Assembly: GCA_027460535.1 (NCBI GenBank)
Contig: JAPZAR010000007.1
Coordinates: 120,001-152,000, forward strand
Source of the DNA: Candidatus Methanoperedens sp.
Lineage (GTDB): Archaea; Halobacteriota; Methanosarcinia; Methanosarcinales; Methanoperedenaceae
DNA length: 32,000 nucleotides
Direction: 5' to 3'
Under the pieces are notes generated by a model. That model searched no databases, was not told the origin of the DNA, and saw nothing but the letters and a program-made list of their open reading frames with translations. Numbering within the stretch: the first letter of the stretch is position 1; every line of letters starts with the position of its first letter. Of the stretch, positions 1,984 to 30,066 are shown piece by piece. A program made the translations under genes and the position numbers.

Positions 1984-2645
1984 CCGCGAAGACACACGTA
2001 AAGCCATCAGGGCACAAGGCACCTGCTGAGGGGCATGCTGAAAAACATATTGAAAAGCATGTTGAGAAGCCTGTTGAAGAAGTCTCCATAAAATCGGTGG
2101 AAAAGCCTCCTGAGAAGATTATCGATACAACGCGCCAGGCCGTGCCTTTTGATACGGGGAATATACCGGGACCGAAGATGGCAAAAGCTGTTATGCCGGC
2201 AGTATCGGGAAAAATGCTCGCAAGAGCGAAACGGCCCCTGCTGATAGTTGGCTCCCAGATCCACGAGGAAGATGTGCTCGCAAAAGTTGTGGACATGGGA
2301 CATGCAGGAATACAGATAGCTGCCATTGGGAATGCCTACAAATCCCTCGGCGATAAGGGACTGGATGTCCATTATGCGAACTTGCATGCGCTTGCATCAT
2401 ACCTGTGCGATCCGAATTGGCGCGGACTGGATGGAAAAGGCGGATACGACCTAGTGGTGTTTTTCGGAATTACGTATTATTACGCATCGCAGGCGATATC
2501 GGCACTTAAGAATTTCTCAGACATCAAGGTCATATCCCTGGATAAATACTATCATCCGAATGCGTTTATGTCATTCGGCAACCTTAAGAAAGACGTGTTC
2601 ATTGCAGCTCTTGACGAGGTCATAAAAGAGTTGCCGAAAAGATAA
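1980..2645 (+). CDS. cdhB: ACDS complex epsilon subunit with an unusual ~50 aa His/Lys/Glu-rich N-terminal extension
   Basis: 221 aa ORF, start-stop coupled to cdhA by ATGA. The conserved epsilon-like core starts around [10 protein letters not shown]...[10 protein letters not shown]. It sits between the alpha and beta subunit genes. Confidence 0.85.
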
Positions 2646-2656
2646 AGACCCAAGTA

Positions 2657-2676
2657 CCCCGTATTTAAATACGGGG
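2657..2676. other. Perfect 20-nt palindrome (CCCCGTATTTAAATACGGGG) in the cdhB-cdhC spacer
   Basis: Read directly: ccccgtattt is the exact reverse complement of aaatacgggg. It lies 12 nt after the cdhB stop and 26 nt before the cdhC ATG. It could form a 10-bp hairpin in the mRNA or act as a protein-binding site. Function unknown. Confidence 0.6.
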
Positions 2677-2701
2677 ACTGATAAAAGACAGGACGACAAT
2701 C

Positions 2702-4108
2702 ATGGCAAACGAATTTCCCTTTGAAATCTCACCCATGTTCGAGGGTGAACGTGTACGAAAAGATGATATGTTTGTTGAACTCGCAGGTCCCAAATCGCGG
2801 GGATTTGAACTCGTGAGGGCGGCAGCATCAGATGAGCTCGAGAACGGGAAGTTTACACTCATCGGGCCGGATATCTCTCAGATGCAGGAAGGTTCTCGCC
2901 ATCCCTATGCAATGATCTACCGAATAGCGGGAAAACTCGTGGAGCCCGACCTTGAGGCAATAGTAGAGAGGCGAAACCACGATTTCCAGAACTATATACA
3001 GGGATACATGCACCTGAACCAGCGTTATGATATCTGGGTACGGATAAACAAGGACGCAATCAAAAAGGGACTGAAATCGTTTGAACAGATAGCCAAAGCC
3101 ACGATGATGCTTTTTAAGAATGAACTGCCTTTTATCGAGAAGATAGAAGCTACTTACATCACTGACCCTGAGGAAGTCGAGAGACAAAGAAATGAAGCCT
3201 TGAAGATATACGAAGCAAGGGACGCCAGGACAAAGGGCCTCCATGACGAGGATGTAGATGTTTTTTACGGCTGTACCCTCTGCCAGAGCTTTGCCCCTAC
3301 AAATGTATGCGTCGTGACACCTGACAGGATATCCCTGTGCGGCGCAATTAACTGGTTCGATGGGCGTGCGGCAGCCAAAGTTGACCCCGAAGGCCCCCAG
3401 TTCGCCATACAAAAAGGCGAGGTCATAGACAATGCAGGTGGCGAATACTCTGGCGTGAATGAAAAAGCTGCCTCGCTATCGGGAGGTGAATTTTCCCGCA
3501 TCAAGCTGCATTCTTTTTTCGAGTACCCGCACACGAGCTGCGGATGCTTTGAAGTCGTAGGTTTCTACATACCTGAGGTGGATGGCATCGCCTGGGTTGA
3601 CCGAGATTTCAGTGGCACTGCTCCAAACGGTCTTGCTTTCTCGACCATGGCGGGACAAACAGGGGGAGGAAAGCAGATCATCGGCTTCCTGGGAGTAGGG
3701 GTGAATTATTTCCGATCTCCCAAGTTCATACAGGCAGACGGAGGATGGAACCGTGTCGTGTGGATGCCCAAGAATCTGAAAGAAAAGATAAAAGCAGATA
3801 TACCTGCTGAACTTATTGATAAAGTTCCCACGGAAGAAGATGCAGCGGACTTGAAGACTCTCCGGGACTATCTTGAGAAAAAGCAGCATCCTATAACCCA
3901 GCGCTGGGCAAAGGAAGAGGCTGCTGCCGAGGCTGCGTCTTCGGAGGTTTCTGCTACAGCCGCGCCTGCATGGTCTGCGCCTGCGATGACAATGCCATCA
4001 GGAATGCCTGCCATGCCGCATTTCGGTGGAGGTGAGGGTGTTAAACTCACTTTCAAGAACGCCAAGATATCAATAGACCGCATTGTGTTCAAAAGCAAGG
4101 AAAAATGA
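2702..4108 (+). CDS. cdhC: ACDS complex beta subunit (acetyl-CoA synthase, A-cluster subunit)
   Basis: 468 aa. It contains the SCGCFE Cys-Gly-Cys motif characteristic of the Ni-binding A-cluster of acetyl-CoA synthases, plus an upstream CTLCQSFAPTNVC Cys cluster. It has an Ala/Pro/Met-rich C-terminal linker. Operon position is after cdhA and cdhB. Confidence 0.9.
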   Translation: MANEFPFEISPMFEGERVRKDDMFVELAGPKSRGFELVRAAASDELENGKFTLIGPDISQMQEGSRHPYAMIYRIAGKLVEPDLEAIVERRNHDFQNYIQGYMHLNQRYDIWVRINKDAIKKGLKSFEQIAKATMMLFKNELPFIEKIEATYITDPEEVERQRNEALKIYEARDARTKGLHDEDVDVFYGCTLCQSFAPTNVCVVTPDRISLCGAINWFDGRAAAKVDPEGPQFAIQKGEVIDNAGGEYSGVNEKAASLSGGEFSRIKLHSFFEYPHTSCGCFEVVGFYIPEVDGIAWVDRDFSGTAPNGLAFSTMAGQTGGGKQIIGFLGVGVNYFRSPKFIQADGGWNRVVWMPKNLKEKIKADIPAELIDKVPTEEDAADLKTLRDYLEKKQHPITQRWAKEEAAAEAASSEVSATAAPAWSAPAMTMPSGMPAMPHFGGGEGVKLTFKNAKISIDRIVFKSKEK

Positions 4109-4233
4109 GTCATGAAAATCCTGACAACGAATTTATTCGACCATTAAATGTCTGAAGGTCGTTCTGAATCGTTGATTTTGCTCTGTGTGCATTGTGGTTT
4201 TCAATATAGCAGGAACTCATGAAGCAGAGGACC

Positions 4234-4278
4234 TGTGATATTTTGAACATACATTTTAAAAATGTGACATTTTCAAAA
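4234..4278 (+). promoter_or_regulatory. Possible internal promoter/operator upstream of the cooC-type gene
   Basis: A direct repeat TGTGAYATTTTSAA (4234-4247 and 4263-4276) flanks a perfect 15-nt A/T palindrome ACATTTTAAAAATGT (4251-4265). The palindrome resembles an archaeal TATA box and is centred ~31 nt before the ATG at 4289. Assignment is by sequence pattern only. Confidence 0.3.
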
Positions 4279-4288
4279 GGACACAAGT

Positions 4289-5038
4289 ATGAAAATAATT
4301 GCAATAACTGGTAAGGGCGGGACAGGAAAAACCGCGGTGGCAGGAATGCTGATAAAGTGTCTATCGTCAGGCAATAAGACGCTGCTTGCCATCGATGCTG
4401 ACCCTGATTCCAACCTCCCCGACGTACTCGGCGTCAAGGTCGATAAGACCATTGGGGACATGCGGGAGTTCATGCTGCAGGAGCGTGACAGGATGCCGCC
4501 TGACACCAATAAAGAGCGGGTGCTGGAATCAAAGATATACGAGGTCCTGACCGAGATGCCTCACTATGATATTCTGGTTATGGGGCGTCCGGAGGGCTCA
4601 GGATGCTATTGCTTTGCGAACAATCTCCTGCGCGGGATAATGGACAGGATATTGAAGAACTACGACCTTACCATAATAGACACAGCGGCAGGACTCGAGC
4701 ATCTCTCGCGCAGGATCATCCGCGACGTGGACGAACTCCTCGTGGTCACGGACGGCTCGCGCCGGGGTTTGCAGACAGCGGAGAGGATAAGAGAGCTTGC
4801 CGGGTCTCTGAACCTCAATATCAAAAAAATGCATGTGATAGCGAACAAGGTAACACCAGAGAATCGCGCAAGGATCGAGGAATATGCAAAAGAGCTGAAG
4901 ATGGATCTTGTAGGAGTTGTGCCTTTTGATGAGGTTCTTGCCAACTTCGATCTTGAGGGAAGACCTCTGGCTGAATTACCACCGGATTCGACGGCGTTGC
5001 GCGGAGTAGGAGAGATTGCGAGAAGAATGGGGTTGTGA
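4289..5038 (+). CDS. cooC: CooC/AcsF-type nickel-insertion ATPase (CODH/ACS maturation)
   Basis: 249 aa. N-terminal deviant Walker A motif GKGGTGKT, and a GSGCYCFANN Cys-x-Cys motif as in CooC-family Ni-binding ATPases. It lies immediately downstream of cdhC, as in Methanosarcina cdh operons. Confidence 0.85.
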   Translation: MKIIAITGKGGTGKTAVAGMLIKCLSSGNKTLLAIDADPDSNLPDVLGVKVDKTIGDMREFMLQERDRMPPDTNKERVLESKIYEVLTEMPHYDILVMGRPEGSGCYCFANNLLRGIMDRILKNYDLTIIDTAAGLEHLSRRIIRDVDELLVVTDGSRRGLQTAERIRELAGSLNLNIKKMHVIANKVTPENRARIEEYAKELKMDLVGVVPFDEVLANFDLEGRPLAELPPDSTALRGVGEIARRMGL

Positions 5039-7318: not shown

Positions 7319-7663
7319 TCAGCGGCTTTCCAGGAATGTTTTCAGGGCGACTGCGGCATTGTATTTCTCATCCTTTGCAGCGTAAACAAACGTAACTATT
7401 CCTTCATTGCTTTTCTGTTTCAGAAGGTGTACCAGGTCTATTTTATTTTCAAGTTCTTTCCAGTAGCGATCACGGAACTCTTCCCATTTCTCGGGTTCAT
7501 GGCCAAACCATTTTCTTAATTCAGTGCTTGGAGCCACTTCTTTCAACCACAAATCCACAGCTGCCCTCTCCTTTGTGAACCCACGCGGCCAGAGCCTCTC
7601 GACCAGTATTCTCTGCCCATCATCTTTTGAGGGCTCGTCATAAATCCGTTTTAATTTTATCAT
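7319..7663 (-). CDS. DUF488-family protein
   Basis: 114 aa. The sequence RIYDEPSKDDGQRILVERLWPRGFTKERAAVDLWLKEVAPSTELRKWFGH matches the remembered DUF488 signature (RIY..., LVDRLWPRG, W.K..APS..LR.WF.H). Confidence 0.75.
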   Translation of the reverse strand: MIKLKRIYDEPSKDDGQRILVERLWPRGFTKERAAVDLWLKEVAPSTELRKWFGHEPEKWEEFRDRYWKELENKIDLVHLLKQKSNEGIVTFVYAAKDEKYNAAVALKTFLESR

Positions 7664-7810
7664 ACGTGGTAACCCCCGGAATATTTTAAATGTATCCTTC
7701 GTTCGTTAAATAATTCACCTGTTACACAGCAGGATACGCCTGATAATGTCTTTTCATGACTGACCTGTGACAAAAATCAGAACAGAAAATGAAGAGATGC
7801 CAGATCAAAT

Positions 7811-9279: not shown

Positions 9280-10161
9280 ATCATCTTTTTTGAAGGAAAA
9301 ACTTCCTTTCACCTTTACAGATGCGGGAAGTTCGCCAAACCTTGCTCTCAGGATCAGGTCTGCAATTTGGGCATCCAGCACCTTTGCTATACCCAGGATG
9401 GAAGTCGTGGGTCTGGGATTTACATCCACCACATATGGTCTGTCGGCAAGCACTATATCAACGCCTGCATACCCACGGCATCCCAGGGTTTTTACAGTCT
9501 TTTTTGCAACCTCAATGATCTCCCCGTTCCGGCTGCAATAATAGGGTACTATCCCGCCTTTATATGATATTTTGTGGTTGATCTCGATCAACTGTTTGTT
9601 GACAGTCAGGGGAAGCAGCGTTTTTCCGCAAATCAGGCTCACGCTCAGGTGTTCTCCCTCAATAAAGCCGGTAGCTATGTCACCTTCTTTCAAAGTACCT
9701 TCGCGGCTCCTATGGATTCCCTCGGAAGCGCAGCCGAACCTTGGCTTGATCACGTAATCCCCGCTATAGTCACCGAAGCCCAGCGTTTCAGGTACGGGTA
9801 TATTTTCAGACAGGAGCGCATTGGTGCATTCAAGCTTATCTGCGCAGAGGCGTACAGAGTCTGAAGGGCAGCCCAGGTTCACCGAGTTCTCCTCCACGAT
9901 CTCCGTAAGGTGGCCGAGGAGTTCATCGGGAGCGATTACCAGGGCAGCATCGCAATCTCTGGATATTGTCTCGATCGCCTCCTCAAATCTTTCTGCCTGG
10001 ATGGCTTTCCCTACATCAAGTCGCACACCCGCTGTCGGATAGATCACTTCATGCCCGCAGGAGGCAAAGCTCCCGGCAAGCACTCCGAGCATGGCACGCC
10101 CTTCGAGCATGAATTCAGGAACTCCTGCTCCAATAGCGTACTCGGCGACCATTATTTTCAT
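9262..10161 (-). CDS. ATP-grasp ligase, possibly MfnD-type (tyramine-glutamate ligase of methanofuran synthesis)
   Basis: 299 aa. An N-terminal Rossmann-like part is followed by an ATP-grasp-like core (YVIKPRFGCASEGI..., GYAGVDIVL...PYVVDVNPRPTTS). Substrate assignment is speculative. The 3' end overlaps the convergent gene 8257-9279 by 18 nt. Confidence 0.6.
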   Translation of the reverse strand: MKIMVAEYAIGAGVPEFMLEGRAMLGVLAGSFASCGHEVIYPTAGVRLDVGKAIQAERFEEAIETISRDCDAALVIAPDELLGHLTEIVEENSVNLGCPSDSVRLCADKLECTNALLSENIPVPETLGFGDYSGDYVIKPRFGCASEGIHRSREGTLKEGDIATGFIEGEHLSVSLICGKTLLPLTVNKQLIEINHKISYKGGIVPYYCSRNGEIIEVAKKTVKTLGCRGYAGVDIVLADRPYVVDVNPRPTTSILGIAKVLDAQIADLILRARFGELPASVKVKGSFSFKKDDLAVLY

Positions 10162-10215: not shown

Positions 10216-10488
10216 ATGTTCGACGTGGATACGTTCAAAAAGGCATATCCGGAATTTTTCAGCTCCCCCGTAACTGGCGAGGATATAGTGAAATGGTTCC
10301 TTGTTTTCATCCTTCCATTCTTGTTAGCATATCTTTACATAAGATATTTCGAGAGCAGGGGAAGTTCATTTCTCAGGGACAGGGTGGTTCCATTTATCAG
10401 GTTCAGGCTGAGGCTGGATAAAGCCATTGAATTTATTAAGCGCATCCTTAGAATACAGATATTCAGGGGCACGAGAACGAGATTTTAG
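10216..10488 (+). CDS. Hypothetical small membrane protein
   Basis: 90 aa ORF with one hydrophobic segment (WFLVFILPFLLAYLYI). No recognisable family. It could be non-coding. Confidence 0.3.
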   Translation: MFDVDTFKKAYPEFFSSPVTGEDIVKWFLVFILPFLLAYLYIRYFESRGSSFLRDRVVPFIRFRLRLDKAIEFIKRILRIQIFRGTRTRF

Positions 10489-10540
10489 GTTAAAGCTTCC
10501 CGGGATGCAGCTCCTGGCATAAAAAGATGATGAGGGAGAC

Positions 10541-10742
10541 ATGCTTTTCATAGAAGAAAATGAAGGGATACTGGTGCAGCCAAGGAAAAAAAGGACGTTG
10601 AAAGATATAATCGGGCTGGCAAAAGCACAAGGAGATGGTGTCGAGTCCAAAAAGCAGGTCCAGAAGGGACTTAAATGATATTCGCGGACTCTTCGTATTT
10701 TATCGAGCGGCACTCCAGAGACAATTTCCAAAACATGCAGCC
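10541..10742 (+). pseudogene. Decayed vapBC-like remnant: AbrB/SpoVT-type antitoxin C-terminal fragment plus the first ~20 codons of a PIN toxin
   Basis: The 45-aa ORF at 10541-10678 reads MLFIEENEGILVQPRKKRTLKDIIGLAK.... In-frame upstream codons read KDDEGD, preceded by a TAA stop. Together this looks like the second half of an AbrB-type swapped-hairpin antitoxin. Its TGA overlaps an ATG (ATGA at 10675-10678) that opens MIFADSSYFIERHSRDN, a typical PIN N-terminus. Similarity is lost where the convergent vapC gene ends (10743). Confidence 0.35.
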
Positions 10743-11165
10743 TCAAAGATTCTTAAGTTCTTCCTGCGGCGTTGCTACCTCGATACATTCCTTTGCCCTA
10801 TCGGTCTGCTGTTTGTCGAGGCTGATTAATTTTGCACTGAATATAAAAGCAACAGCTACATAGATTGCATCGCATCCTCTAAGCCTGTACTCTGCCGCAA
10901 GTCTTGAAGATTCGTCGGCAAGCTCCCGATCTATGGGAACAAATACAATGTTCGGGATTTGTTTTAGCTCTTTTACAAACTCCAGCGCCTTTTCTGGGTC
11001 ATCTGTACCCCTTGCTATTGCAGAAGATATCTCAGGCAAGACAATTTCCGGAACTATGACTGTAATTCCCCGCTTTCTGATGTTTTGCATGAGCCTCGCG
11101 CTGTACTCATGAAATTGTTCGCTTTCTATCTCAGAGTTTATAAAGACACTGGCATCTAGTACATA
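10743..11165 (-). CDS. vapC: PIN-domain ribonuclease toxin (VapC-like), start codon unresolved
   Basis: The ORF track starts at the ATG at 11090. The same frame stays open up to the antitoxin stop and reads YVLDASVFINSEIESEQFHEYSARL. This supplies the first conserved PIN Asp (LDAS). The remaining acidic residues lie in PEIVLPEISS, GCDAIYVAVA and LISLDKQ. Confidence 0.7.
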   Translation of the reverse strand, partial: YVLDASVFINSEIESEQFHEYSARLMQNIRKRGITVIVPEIVLPEISSAIARGTDDPEKALEFVKELKQIPNIVFVPIDRELADESSRLAAEYRLRGCDAIYVAVAFIFSAKLISLDKQQTDRAKECIEVATPQEELKNL

Positions 11166-20201: not shown

Positions 20202-20228
20202 TTTGTATGAAGAATTTTAATGAGAAGG

Positions 20229-20303
20229 AACCGCAGATAAACGCAGATGAACGCAGATTTGTTCTTGTATCCACCCTTATCCAAGTTCAACCGCGGTTAC
20301 TTT
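20229..20303 (-). repeat. Copy C of the intergenic repeat family, inverted relative to copies A and B
   Basis: It contains AACCGCGGTT (20289-20298) and tandem GATRAACGCAGAT units (20235-20259). The reverse complement aligns with the start of copy B (AACCGCGGTTGA...GGATA...ATCTGCG...). Confidence 0.6.
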
Positions 20304-20355
20304 TTGATGATTTGATTAATGCTGAAACATGTGGCATTGAGGGACGTGACGCTTT

Positions 20356-21084: not shown

Positions 21085-21189
21085 ACGTTCTTTATTTTCT
21101 TTGAACATCTCTCACATCTCTGGATTGGAACGGCTGCGTCTCATTCAGGGGCAACGAGATAGCAATAAAAAAATGAAAACTCTTTTTAT

Positions 21190-24100
21190 TCACACTGGAT
21201 GAGCATAAATACTCAGTCCCTGTCCAAAATACGAGTCATAGATGTGCTGATATACCACATCACACTTGTGTTGAAATAACTCTTTTGTATAGCTTACTGG
21301 CAGTTCCTCATCCAGAACCACTTCAATAGATTGTCGCACAGCAGCCCGTGATTGCTGGCGCTTTCTCCAATCGAGAACGAGTTTCTCCTGTTTAAGTGTT
21401 TCAAGAAGGTCATGAGCCACCTTCTTTACCTCTTGCTCCTCCTTCTTGCTCAGAATCATCTCAGGTTTTACCAGGAGGTCGAAGACTGCTAATTCCTCCT
21501 CACTAAGATTCTCCGAAATTCCTCTCTTTTCTTCTGCATTGAGTCCCTGGGCGAATTCAACAAGATTGGCGAAGAATGTTTCCACATTATAGGAGCCTGA
21601 ATTGTATTCATCTATCAGTTTCTGAAACTTCTCCAGGTAATTCACCCTGCTCTTGTTTAATCGAACCATTTGCATCAGTTTGCGATTAATTGCGCCCCTC
21701 AGTTTTTCAGCCTCAATCCGCTTTCGACTTTTCTCAAATTTCTCCTTCAGCGCCTCAAAATCGATCTGGCTCAAATCCACAAGGCGATATTCATCGGACC
21801 TTTCCCGGATAACATATCCTTCAGTGGCGATGGACTCGTCCAGCAGATTTTCGACTGATTCCATAACTTCAGAAATGTCAGTTTCAGGAGACAGAGAACG
21901 AATTGTTTCTGCAATTTTAGTGAAAAGCAGCTGTTTCGGGCCGAACTCGTTGGCTGCCGGGTCAGGGAGGATAGCCCTGTATATTCTGACCACACTAGCT
22001 GCCATCGAAAGGTACTTTGCCTTTGATTCGTCGCTGGTCAATATTGCATCAGTAGCATCATCAATCAACTTGACACGCTCAAAACCATAGGCTGCCTGTA
22101 TCTTCGAGATGTCAATGCCTCGTTCTGTGCAAAATGCCGTGGTCTCCAAAATCAACTGCTTTAGTTGATCAACGAGCACACTCTTGTCCTTTACCGGAGT
22201 TTCGCCTTCTTCTATTCCGCCGCCTGAGCCAGAACCGTAGATTGCCAGTGCTTTCTGCAGGTTCCTGAACACTCCAACATAATCCACTATCAGACCATTT
22301 GACTTATCTCTGAAAACCCGGTTTGCCCGTGCTATGGTCTGCATGAGGGTATGGTTGCGCATGGGTTTGTCAAGGTAGATGGTGGAACAGGATGGTACAT
22401 CAAAACCCGTCATCCACATGGCGCACACGAATACGATGCGGAACGGGTCATCCGGGTCCTTGAACTTCGTATCGAGGTCCTCTTTTACGATTCTCTTGCG
22501 ATGGACAGCGATATCTAATCCCTTTTTCTTAAAGTCTTCAATTTCATTTTGCGATTGAGACACCACGACCGCCATGTCAGTATCTTCCATAAATTTGATT
22601 TTTTCTTCAAGTTCCTTTTTCTCGGATTCTCCACATTTTACAAGCTTAATCTTCAAATCCATCTGATACAATTTCCAGTACTTTTGCACCTTATCGTACA
22701 TCCGAACAGCAGTTGCTTTGTCAATGGAGAAGACCATTGCCTTCCCAAATTGCCCGCGTCCCATGAAATGAGTGACAATGTCATTGGCTATCTTCTCCAG
22801 CCGGTCATCCCTTGTTATCAGGTGGTATTCTCGTGAAAACTCACGCTCAAGTTTATTCTCCTGGTCTGGATCGAGTTCAGCCTCATCGATGAGGCACTGC
22901 AGGTCTTCATTCAGTTCCCTGTTGGTCAGTTGAAGCTCTGGGATGCGATTTTCATAATAAAGAGGAACCGTGGCGCCGTCATCTACAGACTGCTTGAAGT
23001 TGTAGATGCTGACGTAGTCCCCGAAAACCTCTTTTGTCTTTTCTTCACCGATAATGAGAGGCGTGCCTGTGAAGGCGATGAATGCCGCATTGGGGAGAGC
23101 ATTGCGCATGTTCAGGGCAAGGGCATCGTACTGGCTGCGGTGCGCCTCATCCGTGATGACAATAATATCTTTGCGAGCTGAAAGCATGGGATAGGTCTCG
23201 CCCTTCTTTTTATGGAACTTCTGGATGAGTGTGAATATGTAGCGGTGGTCTTCACGCAGCAGCTGCTTTAAGTGTTCTCCGCTCTCTGCCTGCACCTGCT
23301 CTTCAGTCACGGCGCCAGCGCCTGCAAAGTTCTTGTATATCTGGTTGTCCAGATCCTGTCTGTCGGTCACGATAACGAACGTGAAATTACCGGGAATTTT
23401 TCGCAATACTTTCTGCGAAAAGAAAACCATGGAGTAACTTTTCCCGCTGCCCTGCGTATGCCAGAAGACCCCTAAGCGACCTCTATTCTTTTCGATCTGC
23501 TTCAATGCCTCAGTAGCGTTATTCACACCAAGGTACTGGTGGTTCTTCGCAACCAGCTTCACAATCCCGCCGCTGGCTTCGCTGAATAGCATGAAATTCT
23601 CAATAATGTCAAGAAGGCGCGCCGGCTCGCATGTTCCCCTGATCATTGTATCCAGTGAAACAATACCCTCCTCGCCTTCTCTGTTTATCTTTTTCCACTC
23701 TGCGAAGTGCTCCCACTCAGCGGTCATACTGCCTATTTTGCTCTGGCTTCCGTTTGAAAGAATGATTAAACCATTGTACCAGAAGATCTGGGGGATTGCG
23801 TTCTTGTAGTCGCGCAGGTTATCCCTGTATGCATGTTCCAGACGCTTGTGTGATGCCTTAAGTTCGATAAAGACCAGCGGCAGGCCATTTACGAAACCAA
23901 CAAGGTCGGCGCGACGCTTGTACATCTCACCCGTTACCCAGAACTGCGATGCAAGGAAGAAATCATTATTCGAAGGTTCATTCCAATCGATTACACGTAC
24001 GTTCTCAACGGTCTCTTCATTTTCTTTGCCCCGGAAAGAGACTTTCACGCCGCTCTTCATCAAGCGGTAAACCTCCCGGTTGGCATTCGCCGGGCTCATG

Positions 24101-24351
24101 ATGCTGCGATCGCGCGTCAGTTCTTCGATGGCAAGCTCGATGGCTTCTGGTGGCAGGTCGGGATTCAGGTGCACAAGCGCGGCGCGCAGGCGGGGGAGAA
24201 GGACGACTTCGCTGGAGGTTTCGCGCCCGAGCGTGCCATTTTCTCCGAATTTTTCGTAGAAGCAGTTTGCGATCTTCCAGCCCAAATCTGAAAAGAGTTC
24301 GATGGCGGGCTGTTCAACAAGGGAATCTTCGGAGTAATCACTCATTGCCAT
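21190..24351 (-). CDS. hsdR: Type I restriction enzyme R subunit (helicase/endonuclease)
   Basis: 1053 aa. It has an HsdR-type N-terminus (SEDSLVEQPAIELFSDLGW), a Walker A-like motif HTQGSGKS, and a DEAH box ITDEAHRSQ. The C-terminal domain is long. The true start may be the second ATG at 24345. Confidence 0.95.
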   Translation of the reverse strand: MAMSDYSEDSLVEQPAIELFSDLGWKIANCFYEKFGENGTLGRETSSEVVLLPRLRAALVHLNPDLPPEAIELAIEELTRDRSIMSPANANREVYRLMKSGVKVSFRGKENEETVENVRVIDWNEPSNNDFFLASQFWVTGEMYKRRADLVGFVNGLPLVFIELKASHKRLEHAYRDNLRDYKNAIPQIFWYNGLIILSNGSQSKIGSMTAEWEHFAEWKKINREGEEGIVSLDTMIRGTCEPARLLDIIENFMLFSEASGGIVKLVAKNHQYLGVNNATEALKQIEKNRGRLGVFWHTQGSGKSYSMVFFSQKVLRKIPGNFTFVIVTDRQDLDNQIYKNFAGAGAVTEEQVQAESGEHLKQLLREDHRYIFTLIQKFHKKKGETYPMLSARKDIIVITDEAHRSQYDALALNMRNALPNAAFIAFTGTPLIIGEEKTKEVFGDYVSIYNFKQSVDDGATVPLYYENRIPELQLTNRELNEDLQCLIDEAELDPDQENKLEREFSREYHLITRDDRLEKIANDIVTHFMGRGQFGKAMVFSIDKATAVRMYDKVQKYWKLYQMDLKIKLVKCGESEKKELEEKIKFMEDTDMAVVVSQSQNEIEDFKKKGLDIAVHRKRIVKEDLDTKFKDPDDPFRIVFVCAMWMTGFDVPSCSTIYLDKPMRNHTLMQTIARANRVFRDKSNGLIVDYVGVFRNLQKALAIYGSGSGGGIEEGETPVKDKSVLVDQLKQLILETTAFCTERGIDISKIQAAYGFERVKLIDDATDAILTSDESKAKYLSMAASVVRIYRAILPDPAANEFGPKQLLFTKIAETIRSLSPETDISEVMESVENLLDESIATEGYVIRERSDEYRLVDLSQIDFEALKEKFEKSRKRIEAEKLRGAINRKLMQMVRLNKSRVNYLEKFQKLIDEYNSGSYNVETFFANLVEFAQGLNAEEKRGISENLSEEELAVFDLLVKPEMILSKKEEQEVKKVAHDLLETLKQEKLVLDWRKRQQSRAAVRQSIEVVLDEELPVSYTKELFQHKCDVVYQHIYDSYFGQGLSIYAHPV

Positions 24352-24365
24352 TCTCTATGTCAGAT

Positions 24366-24392
24366 TATTATTTAAAGATACGTATATATTAA
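24366..24392. promoter_or_regulatory. A/T-rich divergent promoter region (TATA-like boxes) between hsdR and the 24449 gene pair
   Basis: On the minus strand, TTTAAATAA (plus-strand 24368-24376) is centred ~21-27 nt upstream of the two candidate hsdR ATGs. This is compatible with a leaderless transcript. TATATATTA (24383-24391) could serve the plus-strand pair. Pattern only. Confidence 0.3.
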
Positions 24393-24448
24393 CTTCACTC
24401 TTGCTGAACAATAAGTTTTAACTTATCATAAATCTTAAGGCATATACA

Positions 24449-24748
24449 ATGTACAGCGAAGATTCTGTTTCGGAAATCACTTCTGATCTCAGTCATGTGA
24501 TAGGCTTACCTGAGACCGAGCTTATCCACAGAGGCTTAATATCCTTTATGGAAAAGGAGATCCGGCTTGCTGAGGCGGATATAGCTGATCTTGTGGACAG
24601 ATATAATGTTGCCTCGAAAGAGGATCTGTACGAGGCGATCAGGTCTAAAAAGATACCAAGCCATCCAGCCTGGGAAGATTATATTATCTGGAAGAATAAG
24701 GAAAAATACATCAAAGACCTGAAAGCGCACCTCGGTAAGGTACAGTAG
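24449..24748 (+). CDS. Small helical protein, putative antitoxin/partner of the downstream DUF6516-like gene
   Basis: 99 aa. Its TAG stop (24746-24748) directly abuts the next ATG (24749). It contains an HPAWEDYIIW motif that I recall from small proteins paired with DUF6516-type genes. Confidence 0.55.
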   Translation: MYSEDSVSEITSDLSHVIGLPETELIHRGLISFMEKEIRLAEADIADLVDRYNVASKEDLYEAIRSKKIPSHPAWEDYIIWKNKEKYIKDLKAHLGKVQ

Positions 24749-25129
24749 ATGCTTTTAACGTATAAAACGCTTGAAGAGGTAGCCAGGACAGAATTTTCAG
24801 ATATTGTTAAAGATACGGCGCTAATTGGCGGCAGGTCTGCACAGCCTAATAAGCTGAGGATATACCTAACAGACGGCAGTTTCCTTGATGTCTGGCTTAG
24901 TGAAGAGGAGGATTATTCATATCACTGGGAGCAAAGGGCTGTGAGGGGCTTGATCCATCGATGGGATAATGCCCCTGATCATCCTGAGATCGAGACTTTT
25001 CCGAACCATTTTCATGATGGTAAAGAAAACAATGTCCTGAGCAGTCGATTGAATGCTGATAATAGAGTTGCATTCAAAGATGTTCTTGGTTTTATCAGGA
25101 TTAAATTAAAGGGATTCCATATTCACTGA
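24749..25129 (+). CDS. DUF6516-like protein (family labelled TumE-like toxin in some databases, as recalled)
   Basis: 126 aa. The motif HRWDNAPDHPEIETFPNHFH matches the remembered family signature (W/Y-D-N-A-P-H-H-P...F-P-H-H-x-H). The 3' end overlaps the convergent hsdS stop by 7 nt. Confidence 0.55.
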   Translation: MLLTYKTLEEVARTEFSDIVKDTALIGGRSAQPNKLRIYLTDGSFLDVWLSEEEDYSYHWEQRAVRGLIHRWDNAPDHPEIETFPNHFHDGKENNVLSSRLNADNRVAFKDVLGFIRIKLKGFHIH

Positions 25130-26466
25130 ACCGAAATGTCGATATTCTCCGCGTCCACCTCGCCAGAGATGAGCTTCGGCAGCAGCAGGTCGCGGGTGCG
25201 GCGGAAGTTGGCGTTTTTTGCAAACATTTCAATAATGCTTTTATGCATCGGAGAGCTGATTTCAGTAAATCTATCTTGTATGCTTCTTGGAGGAAGCAAA
25301 AAACTTGTTTTAGCAATAGTTTCCCTCCCAAGCTCCGTTTGGCCAGTAGAGCCGATGCCTTGACTATCAAAGTGTGGTTCAAGGGTTGACATATAAGAGC
25401 CAAAATAATCTATACTTACCTTATCATTCGGCCGAACGATAGTGACATGAGAATCCACTGTACAATCAGGAATTTCCTTATAAATTTGAGCAATACGTCC
25501 AAGTGTTCCGATACCCGTTGAATTTATCAGGACATCACCAAATTTTATGGATTTCTCCACTGGAATTTTCGAAGCGTGCCTTCGAACTAAATCCTGATTG
25601 AATTTGCCTTCCCTAATGCATTTCTGATTGATTACAATTTGTGACGATTGGTCATCATACTTAGGCGAAACACCACGGTTAATATAATCACTAACATCTC
25701 GAATTGTTACTACTTCCCATCCCTGCGGTATCATCCCAAGCTCCGACTCCACCATCCTCACCTTCTCATGCCCCGGAAACCTGAGATTAACAAACCACTC
25801 GCGGTAGAGCGCCTGCGCCATCTCTTCCAGTATTTTGATGCGCCGCGTGTTGTTCTCGATGAGGTCGTCGTAGGCGCTGAGGATGGCGGCGATTTTGCTT
25901 TGCAATTCGACTGATGGTAGCCAGAACATATAAGCATTAATTTGTGAAGGGCTGATATGTGGTACAGACACACCAGTTACGATCGGCTTAATGTAATCTG
26001 TAAACGATTGATCAGCGATGACATACCGCAGATATTCGGTTAACAATCCATTTATTCCACGCAATCGGGCTACCCGTTGGACTAATAGGCAAGGAGGATC
26101 GTGCTTTTTAACCCAAGCGTACTTGAGACCAGCTTCAATCCAAGGTCGATCCATCGCTAGGATTACGTCACCACGTTTAAGTAAATATCTGGTGAAATCA
26201 CCTGACTTTGATAACGGCCAGAGCTTGACCCCCTCCCAGCGCAAACAGCCTTGAGCAACATTATCGCCACGTAATAGTTTGATTGATTCCGAATCATTGG
26301 TGTATTGGGCACTTTTGAACGGAAAACCCGTTAGTAGATCGATGTGTTCTCCGAGTTTGACCAACCTCCAAGATGTCTTCACACTTGCGTTCAAAGTACA
26401 GCCAGCAGTAGTTCCTTCACTTTCTTTTTTGGTTGTCTCACCATTTATTACATTATTTGCCATCAT
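25123..26466 (-). CDS. hsdS: Type I restriction-modification specificity subunit
   Basis: Two target-recognition regions are separated by the conserved central helix (ILSAYDDLIENNTRRIKILEEMAQALYREWF). A matching distal conserved region follows (RRTRDLLLPKLISGEVD). The preferred start is the tandem ATG ATG at 26466/26463, preceded by GGGAGGGAGGTGGG. The ORF-track GTG at 26514 would run into the repeat element. Confidence 0.9.
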   Translation of the reverse strand: MMANNVINGETTKKESEGTTAGCTLNASVKTSWRLVKLGEHIDLLTGFPFKSAQYTNDSESIKLLRGDNVAQGCLRWEGVKLWPLSKSGDFTRYLLKRGDVILAMDRPWIEAGLKYAWVKKHDPPCLLVQRVARLRGINGLLTEYLRYVIADQSFTDYIKPIVTGVSVPHISPSQINAYMFWLPSVELQSKIAAILSAYDDLIENNTRRIKILEEMAQALYREWFVNLRFPGHEKVRMVESELGMIPQGWEVVTIRDVSDYINRGVSPKYDDQSSQIVINQKCIREGKFNQDLVRRHASKIPVEKSIKFGDVLINSTGIGTLGRIAQIYKEIPDCTVDSHVTIVRPNDKVSIDYFGSYMSTLEPHFDSQGIGSTGQTELGRETIAKTSFLLPPRSIQDRFTEISSPMHKSIIEMFAKNANFRRTRDLLLPKLISGEVDAENIDISVQ

Positions 26467-26524
26467 CCCACCTCCCTCCCTCTCTCGCTCTGCCGTAGTC
26501 CTGAAAGCTGGCACTTCAAATTTG

Positions 26525-26565
26525 ACAGGATAACAGGATAAACAGGATTAAGAGCATATCCTGTT
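26525..26565 (+). repeat. Tandem ACAGGATA units plus an 8-bp hairpin
   Basis: ACAGGATA occurs at 26525-26532 and 26533-26540, and AACAGGATT at 26541-26549. AACAGGAT (26541-26548) pairs with ATCCTGTT (26558-26565) across a 9-nt loop. Confidence 0.7.
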
Positions 26566-26591
26566 AATCCCATCTGAAAAATCACCGAACT

Positions 26592-27000
26592 AAAAAACCG
26601 CGGATGATGGCGCCCAGAGTCACGCCTCTGGAGGGCGTGTCCACGTCGACTGTCACGCCAGTCGATTGCGTGCACACGTATGCCAGCGCACTGGCATACG
26701 TGGACGGGCGTCCTCAAGGGGCGCAACCCTTGACGTATGCCCACAGGCATACGTGTGCGCGGAGTCGAGAACCCGCAGGGTTTCGGCGTGATAAACGCAG
26801 ATACCTTTGTGCCAGATGCCGGATTTTTCAGAGAAGAGCAAACGTGATGGAACACGGATTGCGCGGATGCGCGCGGATCCGTGGAAATCCGTCCAATCCG
26901 TGTTATCCGTGTTCTGCGTTGCGGTTTTAGCACGTTTCCAGACCTGAGCGCGAAGGTCGCGGAGACTTCTGAGCTTTGCGTTCTTTGCGTACTTTGCGGT
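26592..27000 (+). repeat. Copy A of the intergenic mosaic repeat (composite, carries the extra hairpin module)
   Basis: The 5' motif AAAAAACCGCGG (26593-26604) is shared with copy B. The core at 26871-26918 aligns with 27802-27849 at about 42 of 48 positions by my count. The 3' triple CTTTGCG 9-mer at 26974-27000 matches 27861-27887. About 250 bp (roughly 26612-26860) has no counterpart in copy B. Confidence 0.75.
26614..26757. repeat. Array of five perfect hairpins (BIME/REP-like palindromic units)
   Basis: H1 is 26614-26631 (CCAGAG-tcacgc-CTCTGG). H2 is 26646-26665 (TCGACTG-tcacgc-CAGTCGA). H3 is 26675-26702 (12-bp stem, CACGTATGCCAG-cgca-CTGGCATACGTG). H4 is 26714-26733 (TCAAGGG-gcgcaa-CCCTTGA). 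H5 is 26733-26754 (ACGTATGCC-caca-GGCATACGT). An alternative 12-13 bp pairing joins 26672-26684 with 26746-26758. Confidence 0.8.
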
Positions 27001-27118
27001 TCTGGATATTTCTCATCCATAATGCCCAACAATATATTTTATGGTCTGTTTTTAATCTATAAAGTCATAAATATTTGGTTAGGTTCAAATCAAAGAAAAA
27101 GTTGCGGAGAGAAATGAA

Positions 27119-27310
27119 TTAAGATGAAACGGTTTTCGCATCAATTTTTCCAGACATCAGCCCTTTCTTTTTCCGGGCAGGCACATCATCAACATATTTA
27201 TAAGAAACAACCTTTGTTTCATGTGGCCCTTCCCACTCATCTGGTTTGATCGGCGATGCTTCTATATCTTTTATCGCCTTTTCCCTCTCTTCTTTAGTGT
27301 ATTTTTTCAT
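27119..27310 (-). CDS. Small charged protein, putative BrnA-like antitoxin (by position)
   Basis: 63 aa. It starts 5 nt after the stop of the upstream BrnT-like gene. The toxin-first order matches brnTA operons. There is no recognisable DNA-binding motif, so the call rests on context only. Confidence 0.4.
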   Translation of the reverse strand: MKKYTKEEREKAIKDIEASPIKPDEWEGPHETKVVSYKYVDDVPARKKKGLMSGKIDAKTVSS

Positions 27311-27315
27311 TGATA

Positions 27316-27603
27316 CTATGTTTTACATCTTTCCCTATATAAATTCTTATAGCCGTCCGAAGGCTCATAGGCAGTAAGCAGATAGAATCTCTGAGTAGAT
27401 TGCTGTGTCAGCACCACCATAAGGATTCTGCCCTGAGATTCACCCAATATAGTATATCTTATTTCTCCAGCGGTCTTAATCTTCCGGGAATAGGTCAGCC
27501 CATTAAGTACATTGAAAACATCCGAAACGCTAACACCATGCCTTTTTATATGGTCTTCAGCATCAGGTCCGGCTATTAACTCAATCCTTTTCCAATCAAC
27601 CAT
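27316..27603 (-). CDS. BrnT-like (DUF497-type) toxin candidate
   Basis: 95 aa. The segments DHIKRHGVSVSDVFNVL, EIRYTILGESQGRILMVVLTQ and FYLLTAYEPSDGYKNLY parallel the remembered BrnT pattern (KHGVSFEEA..., eRy..iG...grll.vv.t, iRiISAR.a...E...Y). Confidence 0.5.
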   Translation of the reverse strand: MVDWKRIELIAGPDAEDHIKRHGVSVSDVFNVLNGLTYSRKIKTAGEIRYTILGESQGRILMVVLTQQSTQRFYLLTAYEPSDGYKNLYRERCKT

Positions 27604-27774
27604 TTAAGCTTGAATAGTCCACACCGGTTTTAATACTTTCGAAACTCAGTGGGTATAAAATCTTTTAGGGTTACAATAGCTTAATTTGGCAGACAGTGTC
27701 TGCCGATTTTAAAAGGGTAATTTATCGATATCGATTCGTGACGCACTGCGTCATAAATTTGAAAATTCACATCA

Positions 27775-27887
27775 TAAAAAAACCGCGGTTGACGTGGATA
27801 CGCGCGGATCTGTGGAAATCCGTCCTATCAGTGTCATCCGTGTTCCGCACTGTGGCTGTGCTTTGCGCTCTTTGCGTCCTTTGCGGT
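27775..27887 (+). repeat. Copy B of the intergenic repeat (short form, same orientation as copy A)
   Basis: It runs AAAAAAACCGCGGTTGA, then the core GCGCGGATCTGTGGAAATCCGTCCTATCAGTGTCATCCGTGTTCCGC, then the CTTTGCG 9-mer triplet (27861-27887). See copy A for the alignment. Confidence 0.75.
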
Positions 27888-27928
27888 GGGCTGCGCCAAA
27901 ATTAGAAGCCGACATTTCAACAGTCATA

Positions 27929-28012
27929 TTATTCATCAGATGCCTCAACCATTTTACGCTTCTTCGCGATTTTTGTTCTTTTTTCAACAAGGGCTTCGAA
28001 TTCATCTGGCAT
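27929..28012 (-). CDS. Possible 27-aa micro-ORF downstream of hsdM
   Basis: It reads MPDEFEALVEKRTKIAKKRKMVEASDE and is preceded by GGAGGA, 4 nt before the ATG. It is too short to assess and is not in the ORF track. Confidence 0.2.
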   Translation of the reverse strand: MPDEFEALVEKRTKIAKKRKMVEASDE

Positions 28013-28062
28013 ATAATCCTCCAGGTTCAATAACAGCACTCCCTTCGTTTCAGCCTCTTTTT

Positions 28063-29613
28063 TCATCCGGCTTCCAGCAGCCTCTCAACATTCTCAGCAA
28101 TACGCCCTTCCAGTTCCCGCGCCTCTACATTAAGCGTTTCAAGCTCCTCGTTCAGTTCCTCAAGGCGTTCCTTGAAATCAAAATCATCAGCCTCGCGTTC
28201 AGCCACTCCAACATAGCGCCCCGGGTTCAGGCTCCAGCCCTGCGCTTCAATCTCGGAAAGTTCAGCCACTCTGCATAAACCGGGAACATCCACGTATTTA
28301 ACATCGGGGAACTTCTCTTTCAACATCGGCGCGCTGCCGTTCGTTGTTTCAGGCTCCTCGCCCCGATATAGCCGCACGATATTGGCAAGGAATTCGATTT
28401 GATCAGGCATGAAGTCTCGATGGGCGCGGTCAACCTGATGGAATATATACCGTGCGTCCAGAAAGAGGACTTTGTCCTTGCGCGGCGTTTTTAACTTGCC
28501 GCGGTCGAGGAACCAGAGAGTGCATGGCAATGTTACCGTGTAGAAGAAGTTCGAGCCAACGGCAACCATTACATCTACGGCGCCAGCTTCAATAAGCGAT
28601 TTTCGGATATCCTGCTCGCTTCCGCGGGCGTCGCTGGCTGAGTTTGCCATCACGAATCCACTGCGACCACCCTCATTCAGAGCGCTGTAAAATACCTGGA
28701 TCCAGAGATAGTTGCCATTATCAGGCTTTGGCATGCCAAATGGGAAGCGGGGGTCGTCCTTGATACGCTCCTTGTCCACTCTATCGACGTTAAACGGTGG
28801 ATTTGCCATCACGAAATCGAATTTGCCAAAGCTTTTGTGGATATCTTCGTAGTAGCTGTTGCCCTCGCGAATATCTCCAGAGAGACCATGAACCGCGAGG
28901 TTCATTTTGCACAGGCGCACAGTTTCAGCGGTTTTTTCCTGACCATAAACGCTTATCTCAGAATTGGGATTCTTCTTGTGGTTTCCCACGAAACGCGCAC
29001 TCTGGACGAACATACCGCCTGAGCCGCAGGCAGGGTCAAAGATGCGCCCGTGATAGGGCTCGATGACCTCGACTATGAGTTTAACAATAGAGGTGGGTGT
29101 AAAGAACTCGCCTCCCTTCTGCCCCTCGCTCATGGCGAACTTGCCCAGGAAATACTCATAGATCTTTCCAAAGGCATCGCCTTCAATGTCCATAGGCACA
29201 GAGTTGAATGTCTTTAATAATTCAACCAGGGTGCTGTTATCGAGGTGATTATATGTCTTGGGCAGAATGTCTTTGAGCTCTTCGTTCTCAGCCTCGATGG
29301 CGCGCATCGCTTCGTTGATGGCCTTTCCAATATCAGCACCTTCTGGCAGGTTGAGAAGCTTGGAGAATCTTGAGGCTTCAGGCAGGTACAGCACACCGCG
29401 CGCCTGGTAATCTGTTTTGCCGACGGCGCGCCTGTCTGAACTTTTACCTGCCAGCTCCTTCTGGGCTATAGTAAACTTGTGATCAGCGTAACGGAGAAAG
29501 ATCAGTCCAAGAACCGGGACTGAGTATTCCGAAGATTTTAATTTAGAATTTGCCCGTAGCTCGTCTGCGGCAGACCACAGACGTTTTTCAATCTCGTTAT
29601 GATTGCCTGCCAT
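28063..29613 (-). CDS. hsdM: Type I restriction-modification N6-adenine DNA methyltransferase subunit
   Basis: 516 aa. It has an HsdM N-terminal domain ([31 protein letters not shown]), the SAM-binding motif [12 protein letters not shown], and the catalytic motif IV NPPF (MANPPFNV). Confidence 0.95.
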
Positions 29614-30066
29614 TTTTGCGCCTCATTTCTCCTTCCTTGTTTGACCCGCTAAGGACGATAGGCATCCTTTAGTTAGACCGAACATATAACTTAGTATATA
29701 TTGATAAGCATATTGTCTTAAATGCAATATCGAATTATGGATTTAAATTTAAATATGTCTCCTTTTGGCTTTGTCATACCAACTCTTCCTGAGCCTTGAA
29801 GAGGAGGAATTTCTGGGGCTGTTCGCAGAATATGAGCCTTATCCCCCAAAGTCCTCAGACGCATGGAATCGAAATCATAACGGTGGCTAAAATTTATGTA
29901 CGATTAATAACAATGATTTCTTATAATGTATGTAATCCTCTCCCTTTAATTAAAAAATAGACGGGAATAAAGATGGGGAAAGGATTCGGGATAATTCATG
30001 CCTGGGGAAGCGGTTCTGGTCAGCGGGGCTCTTAATTGCTCATTTATCATTGAAATGAGGTAACGG

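Follow-up and report, generated by a model that had tools for sequence, protein, structure and literature searches.

Within the 32,000-nucleotide (nt) window analysed here, a stretch of contig JAPZAR010000007.1 (assembly GCA_027460535.1) from Candidatus Methanoperedens sp., a type I restriction–modification (R-M) locus carries two pairs of small genes lodged between its hsd genes. The genes for the methyltransferase subunit, hsdM (28063–29613), the specificity subunit, hsdS (25123–26466), and the restriction subunit, hsdR (21190–24351), all lie on the minus strand and are kept apart by two gaps: one of 1596 nt between hsdM and hsdS, which holds 95-amino-acid (aa) and 63-aa open reading frames (ORFs) on the same strand, and one of 771 nt between hsdS and hsdR, which holds 99-aa and 126-aa ORFs on the opposite strand. 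This split anatomy had been recognized in a first-pass annotation made from the DNA alone, and all seven of its ORFs were reproduced at exactly the same coordinates. The neighbours it had named, a glutamate synthase (glt) operon on one side and a β-oxidation cluster on the other, were borne out by family matches to GATase_2, Glu_synthase and GXGXG, and to 3HCDH, ECH and ACAD, respectively. The same locus is present, identical, in five independent public assemblies.

We scanned the window proteins with Pfam, PADLOC and NCBIfam and read catalytic motifs straight from the ORF translations. HsdR (1053 aa, intact) combines HSDR_N, SWI2_SNF2/ResIII, T1R_D3-like and T1RH-like_C domains in Pfam, that is, an N-terminal nuclease with an SF2 translocase; it matches PADLOC REase_I (E 6.7e-187) and NCBIfam TIGR00348 (519 bits against a cut-off of 284), displays the motifs GSGKS (Walker A), DEAH and D..ELK, and has the HsdR of EcoR124I as its closest solved structure (E 5e-33). 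HsdS, which spans 447 aa from an ATG or 463 aa from a GTG at 26514 and has a strong ribosome-binding site, GGAGGTG, contains two Methylase_S stretches in Pfam, corresponding to two target recognition domains (TRDs), and matches PADLOC Specificity_I (E 6e-73) over residues 48–457. HsdM (516 aa, intact) carries HsdM_N (PF12161) and N6_Mtase (PF02384, E 4e-84), matches PADLOC MTase_I (E 7e-234) and has a legible AdoMet motif and NPPF, which identify it as an N6-adenine methyltransferase. The type I R-M system is thus complete and, to judge from its sequence, probably active.

The same scans placed the 126-aa ORF of the hsdS–hsdR gap (tumE, 24749–25129, plus strand) in PF20126, formerly DUF6516 (E 2.5e-18; 66.3 bits against a gathering cut-off of 23.4), and its product retains every invariant residue of the family alignment. 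Experiments have shown this family to be the translation-inhibiting toxin of a type II toxin–antitoxin (TA) system with an upstream antitoxin, TumA; neutralization of the toxicity by the partner has been demonstrated for six gammaproteobacterial TumE–TumA pairs only (PMC10584680). The partner in the window is tumA (99 aa, 24449–24748, plus strand), a presumed antitoxin gene whose stop codon is adjacent to the tumE start, which makes a bicistron with a small upstream partner. Its product has a precomputed Pfam assignment to PF27273 ('MJ0235'), no above-threshold match in our local Pfam copy and a weak match to HTH_17 (E 0.011). In the 80 best genome loci that form our TumE comparison set, a TumA homologue lies upstream of TumE in all but five (75/80). 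Against NF045777, the NCBIfam equivalog of the validated proteobacterial TumE, the window protein scores 26.7 bits, under the cut-off of 90, and on this comparison it represents a divergent subfamily and not an equivalog. The 3′ end of tumE converges on that of hsdS with a 7-nt overlap.

The tumAE pair forms a discrete cassette. Using blastn, we find 76–81% nucleotide identity with three other loci (L010, L007 and L012) over exactly 24405–25110 (plus strand, ~706 bp), with unrelated flanks on both sides. The shared span comprises the two genes and 44 nt upstream of them, a promoter-like region that includes the palindrome ATAAGTTTTAACTTAT. This palindrome, a perfect 7+2+7 repeat at 24411–24426, sits 30 nt upstream of tumA, in the 97-nt spacer (24352–24448) between the divergent hsdR and tumA genes, where there are also TATA-like AT-rich boxes. 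Since the palindrome region accompanies tumAE into loci without hsd genes, it looks like the promoter or operator of the cassette itself. In three related copies of the whole island (L006, L013 and L089), the hsdR-proximal and tumA-proximal parts of the spacer are both kept with an extra ~100 nt between them; a spacer of 97 nt here against ~200 nt in those copies argues against a shared operator.

The 95-aa ORF of the hsdM–hsdS gap (27316–27603, minus strand) falls short of a family assignment by sequence, with 29.2 bits to BrnT_toxin (PF04365) in our local Pfam copy, under the gathering score of 34.5, and with the precomputed BrnT_toxin matches of its homologues mostly flagged as weak. Its predicted structure nevertheless points to BrnT: the AlphaFold2 (AF2) model has a pLDDT of 93.9, and a Foldseek search against the PDB returned Brucella BrnT (3U97) as the top match (probability 1.00, TM-scores of 0.56/0.67, root-mean-square deviation of 3.2 Å, 80 columns, E 3.9e-3). 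As modelled, the protein has a BrnT (DUF497-like) fold. Its subfamily is narrow, with 42 proteins, and the sole source-named member comes from Methanoperedens. Its gene precedes that of the 63-aa protein (27119–27310, minus strand) by 5 nt, and the toxin comes first in every homologous locus; in all those examined, an ORF of 63–69 aa lies 2–5 nt 3′ of the toxin gene or overlaps its stop codon. The same gene order is characteristic of the BrnT–BrnA family. The 63-aa protein itself has no Pfam or NCBIfam match even at E ≤ 1 and is not recognizable as BrnA, a ribbon–helix–helix protein, and we thus refer to a BrnT-fold toxin and a putative antitoxin of no assigned class. This cassette, too, is autonomous, as it occurs in four independent contexts free of hsd genes (L086, L087, L181 and L182/183). 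Taken together, the family match of TumE, the BrnT fold and a conserved partner gene for each toxin uphold the first-pass view of both inserts as TA-like modules.

The BrnT-like pair is bracketed by two copies of a dispersed modular repeat, as had been seen at first pass, and their orientation is direct. Copy A (26572–27000, or 26525–27000 in the feature map) and copy B (27757–27887) are 78–91% identical, depending on the segment, and copy A is split by a nested GC-rich palindromic element of ~245 nt (about 26608–26854) that resembles a miniature inverted-repeat transposable element (MITE). When folded, this element forms a long hairpin (z −6.9), and a different metagenome-assembled genome (L016) has a copy of it, 94% identical, in an unrelated position. 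A 185–189-aa ORF across copy A (26463–27032, minus strand), called as a gene in public annotation, is probably a spurious translation of the repeat; we rejected it because it has no family match and because its likeness to an ORF in the BLZ2 genome (L006) is restricted to the repeat modules. A Campbell-type insertion of the BrnT cassette through the repeats also found no support, as the stand-alone cassettes tested (L086 and L087) have no adjoining repeat. Rfam and tRNA scans of the window returned nothing, and hence neither a tRNA attachment site nor a known RNA in the repeats.

Fragments of the repeat recur beyond the gap. The 154-nt spacer between the FMN-domain and GXGXG genes of the glt operon (20202–20355) holds an inverted fragment, TCAACCGCGGTTACTTTTT, especially at 20287–20309, and in all three window copies CCGCGG followed by a T-run is oriented along local transcription; this module could be terminator-like or attenuator-like in archaea. 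The repeat module CTTTGCGnnCTTTGCG stands just upstream of tumA in several unrelated loci (L007 ~9581, L008 ~5354, L010 ~9535–9568 and L016 ~7646–7691); with about 20 motif matches in 257 kb, its closeness to tumA looks non-random. The CTTTGCG module of the dispersed repeat also occurs no more than about 150 nt upstream of tumA at three other loci. A further possibility, which we regard as unlikely, is that the CTTTGCG/CCGCGG repeats, which abut several cassettes, supply recombination sites for cassette swaps in hsd spacers.

The locus as a whole is an accessory island that is mobile, or at least patchily inherited, and subject to erosion. Its extent, 21183–29711 or roughly 8.5 kb, is given by the limits of DNA homology (blastn) with BLZ2, in which the same hsdR and hsdM (86% and 94% aa identity, respectively) occupy a different chromosomal site with unrelated flanking DNA, where we read AbiE-like fragments and a TnpB-like gene by eye from the translations. 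There, tumA–tumE keeps its position beside hsdR and is followed by extra genes. The cargo of the hsdM–hsdS gap has been swapped: where the window has the BrnT-like pair, BLZ2 has a gene for a YhcG/DUF1016 nuclease. In hsdS, only the central and C-terminal conserved regions match between the two copies (94–97% nucleotide identity), and the TRDs have therefore been swapped as well. The region just upstream of hsdM (29614–29711), a probable promoter, is conserved in BLZ2. In the window, a 45-aa ORF without a family match in NCBIfam (27929–28066, minus strand) starts by overlapping the hsdM stop codon, and in BLZ2 an unrelated 93-aa ORF (10307–10588, minus strand) takes the same hsdM-coupled position.

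Two further copies document decay. At a third site, L089 (7703–12337) is a deletion-riddled version of the same composite island, in which an hsdM remnant fused in frame to a BrnT remnant is accompanied by the 63-aa gene, a scrap of hsdS, a tumA remnant and hsdR remnants. In L013 (135–1899), five deletions have removed about 1.5 kb of hsdR, and tumAE is intact beside the broken gene.

The accessory character of the island, proposed at first pass, is thus upheld by its other sites in BLZ2 and L089 and by the lack of hsd genes at the corresponding places in relatives: no hsd gene adjoins the glt operon in three of them, where an extracellular contractile injection system (eCIS) cluster, carA or an FrhB-like gene follows the GXGXG gene, and neither hsd nor glt genes were detected upstream of about 25 close orthologues of the β-oxidation gene hbd, where a second ACAD gene is often found. 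The companion proposal, an insertion directly between the two clusters, did not gain the same standing, as it is deduced from absence elsewhere and no clean empty site, with glt next to hbd, was found among the relatives compared. No terminal repeats or target-site duplications were seen at the island limits (21183 and 29711), GC content shows no contrast between island and flanks, and a search of a plasmid database gave no DNA match to the island and a single, distant TumE match.

In the closest relative found (L090, 3635–10893; GXGXG orthologue with 91% aa identity), a contractile-injection cluster (sheath, gp19, baseplate, Pvc16_N and AAA genes) stands in the position of the hsd island, so that the junction downstream of glt looks like a variable spot. 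eCIS genes have been reported on jumbo extrachromosomal elements of Methanoperedens, and loci combining HsdR, HsdM, HsdS and YhcG are common to these elements and Methanoperedens chromosomes (PMC13444090, 2026). By analogy, such elements are a plausible vehicle for the island.

The copy in the window has chromosomal markers for company, namely genes for carbon monoxide dehydrogenase/acetyl-CoA synthase (CODH/ACS), the glt operon and, on a longer public contig (L001), fibrillarin. The CODH/ACS cluster (37–5038; Prismane/CdhA-like, CdhB, CdhC and a CooC-type ATPase) marks the window as core chromosomal DNA of a methane-metabolizing archaeon. Elsewhere in the window, a 115-aa PIN-domain ORF (PF01850, E 8e-12) overlaps a family-less 126-aa ORF by 4 nt (10366–11090, minus strand), and the two may form another TA-like pair.

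We examined how often TumE keeps such company by searching its 80 loci for hsd genes with the window proteins (tblastn) and by running Pfam and PADLOC on the immediate neighbours only. Genes for hsd subunits lie near TumE in four loci, L006 and L013, which are the orthologous islands described above, and L010 and L083; none were found in the remaining 76. L010 (2652–13928; uncultured archaeon LFW-280_4, CABMII010000056) holds a type I R-M system from a different family: its HsdR is of the EcoEI_R_C type, and its HsdM shares only 25% identity with that of the window. Its tumAE pair lies between hsdS and hsdR, accompanied by a PIN gene, a DUF4258/MqsA-like pair and a nucleotidyltransferase gene, so that several TA-like modules share one hsd locus. 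L083 (5085–11376; Gallionellaceae bacterium, VIKH01000005) is an operon of the order hsdR–hsdM–DUF2281–128-aa ORF–TumE–hsdS, with overlapping TumE stop and hsdS start codons and with a partner unlike TumA. On four Methanoperedens contigs (L173–L175 and L179), the gene immediately preceding tumAE encodes a Cas3-like helicase, and L173 has HD and Csc2 genes as well. In L176–L178, it shares an island with HicAB, two PIN genes, HEPN-MNT, and ResIII/N6_N4_Mtase or GmrSD.

We favour, with a probability of about 0.72, the reading that this is an intact type I R-M accessory island in whose spacers two autonomous TA cassettes have lodged, each working independently and neither gated by the R-M enzyme. 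The enzyme would methylate host DNA and cut unmodified incoming DNA. Its two intergenic spacers have each taken in a type II TA cassette, and copies of the dispersed MITE-like repeats are there too; TumE would act as a translation inhibitor and the BrnT-like protein as a probable RNase, with each toxin presumably restrained by its partner protein and each cassette probably using a promoter of its own. Their persistence most likely has two causes, the tolerance of accessory defence loci for insertions into their spacers and the resistance of addiction modules to being deleted, and they may add an abortive-infection layer without PrrC-type wiring to the R-M enzyme. Gene identities, the autonomy of the cassettes, the mobility and decay of the island and the exchange of its cargo are shown by the comparisons above; the activity of all these parts, their independent regulation and a stabilizing or defensive benefit are inferred.

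The first-pass annotation had suggested a tighter arrangement, a layered defence in which the toxins are under the control of R-M status, in the way that EcoprrI controls PrrC. Here the R-M complex, or its integrity, would keep one or both toxins latent, and phage anti-restriction or the loss of R-M would trigger abortive infection. The physical embedding of both cassettes fits such coupling, as do the divergent tumAE–hsdR arrangement, kept in all four island copies, and the independent embedding of TumE in the L010 and L083 systems, in the latter with overlapping stop and start codons. TumE also has a weak match to PDC-M44B, one of the PADLOC candidates derived from cassettes embedded in BREX, DISARM or R-M loci (10.1101/2024.01.29.577857). 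The resemblance to PrrC in the E. coli EcoprrI type IC locus extends to a translation-targeting toxin gene inside an hsd locus. PrrC, however, is an ABC-ATPase/HEPN protein that comes without an antitoxin, depends on the R-M complex for its masking and is found almost exclusively within type I R-M loci, whereas both window toxins have conserved partner genes of their own, which removes the need for R-M masking, and occur mostly outside R-M loci: hsd genes are lacking nearby at 76/80 TumE loci and at all four independent contexts of the BrnT cassette. None of the four small proteins has an ABC-ATPase or HEPN domain in Pfam. The upstream region of tumAE moves with the cassette into unrelated flanks, and the hsdM–hsdS cargo is interchangeable, as shown by YhcG in BLZ2. 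Own partner genes, an own tumAE upstream region and hsd-free occurrences thus leave PrrC-like latency unsupported, and we consider gating of the toxins by R-M very improbable.

Equally improbable, in our view, is a role of the TA proteins chiefly as transcriptional regulators of the R-M genes, for example through binding of TumA or TumAE to the hsdR–tumA spacer. A precedent is the Phd-Doc-like pair TvrAT of the pneumococcal tvr type I R-M locus, where it controls the gene for the recombinase (PMC6265443), and the close divergent spacing of hsdR and tumA, the palindrome and the weak HTH_17 match in TumA are all compatible with it; against it stand the ~100 nt that separate the palindrome from the hsdR-proximal boxes in BLZ2, L013 and L089, and the travel of the palindrome with tumAE to loci without hsd genes. 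Somewhat less remote, and still unlikely, is an R-M system that is already compromised, with insertions having cut the hsdM–hsdS operon, the locus on the path of decay seen in L013 and L089, and the TA cassettes as the only parts under selection. Decayed copies do exist, and in our own reading the oligo-T run after CCGCGG on the transcribed strand of each repeat could act as an archaeal terminator in the intervals that separate hsdM, the BrnT pair and hsdS. The window copy, however, has three full-length hsd ORFs with their catalytic motifs and the GGAGGTG site at hsdS, and it is unchanged across the five assemblies.

Some observations weigh against the favoured reading. Three mutually unrelated type I R-M loci among the 80 best (the window type, L010 and L083) have TumE lodged in them, and it is also found beside Cas3/Csc2 genes and in an island of TA, R-M and GmrSD genes. 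Two HsdS proteins occur among its 133 immediate neighbours, far above a rough expectation of <0.1, which rests on our own estimate of hsdS density and not on a computed background. Furthermore, divergent hsd genes farther from TumE in the 80 loci could have escaped detection. In our judgement, this company exceeds what chance would give and leaves room for a defence role. Its strongest form would make archaeal TumA–TumE a true anti-virus or anti-plasmid module that preferentially colonizes, and cooperates with, DNA-targeting immune loci, with translation arrest by TumE as a second line once the first has been evaded; we regard that as unlikely. TumAE is a resident of defence islands and a fair candidate by guilt-by-embedding, and we see no mechanistic tie to R-M. 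The autonomous-cassette reading remains the one we prefer.

Placed among known systems, the locus adds one more example to a pattern already on record and does not represent a novel type of defence system. The first-pass annotation had considered the arrangement undescribed, which is true only of the families involved here; arrangements of this kind are well known, from PrrC, tvrAT and E. coli brnAT to the survey of Payne et al. 2024. Makarova et al. 2013 (PMC3632139) had drawn attention to variable extra genes within R-M loci, and Payne et al. treated them systematically in their 'guilt-by-embedding' analysis, with a tally of 17,432 genes that lie inside BREX, DISARM and type I R-M loci (10.1101/2024.01.29.577857). 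As in those studies, small cassettes here sit between hsd genes, their cargo varies among orthologous loci and most of the families are also found non-embedded elsewhere; what differs is the archaeal host, Methanoperedens, and the cargo, with neither TumA–TumE nor the BrnT-fold pair mentioned in the main text of Payne et al.

The pneumococcal tvr/SpnIV locus has a pair of type II TA homologues, the Phd-Doc-like tvrAT, between hsdM and hsdR (PMC6265443), but tvrAT stands beside a recombinase gene and shufflable hsdS fragments and regulates the shuffling, whereas the window locus has no recombinase and no spare hsdS fragments. In the E. coli immigration control region, the brnAT, symER and rpn TA systems accompany type I hsd families (PMC12707154), so that a BrnT-family TA pair next to hsd genes in a variable defence hotspot has a parallel there; the E. 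coli pair is adjacent within a chromosomal hotspot, whereas ours lies between hsdM and hsdS and has a partner that is no recognizable BrnA. Closest by lineage are the HsdRMS+YhcG loci of Methanoperedens (PMC13444090), which we liken by their description: the BLZ2 orthologue also has YhcG between hsdM and hsdS, and the window copy differs in having the BrnT-like cassette in that position. Lastly, the tumAE bicistron follows the layout of the TumE–TumA superfamily of Durairaj et al. 2023, a PF20126 toxin 3′ of a small partner gene, and differs in its archaeal subfamily, its MJ0235-type partner and its R-M and defence context, which is not discussed there (PMC10584680).

The novelty lies in the host lineage and in TumAE as cargo and, modestly, in the finding that three type I R-M loci unrelated to one another contain TumE, which also neighbours other defence genes; the locus reveals no new mechanism. 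It adds an archaeal example, from the methane-oxidizing Methanoperedens, of type I R-M spacers as landing pads for small toxin modules. It provides the first defence-island context for the recently named TumE–TumA family, and makes TumAE a reasonable phage-defence candidate by the logic of guilt-by-embedding. In its intact, cargo-swapped and decayed copies, this single island offers a compact picture of how composite islands move, exchange their cargo and erode.

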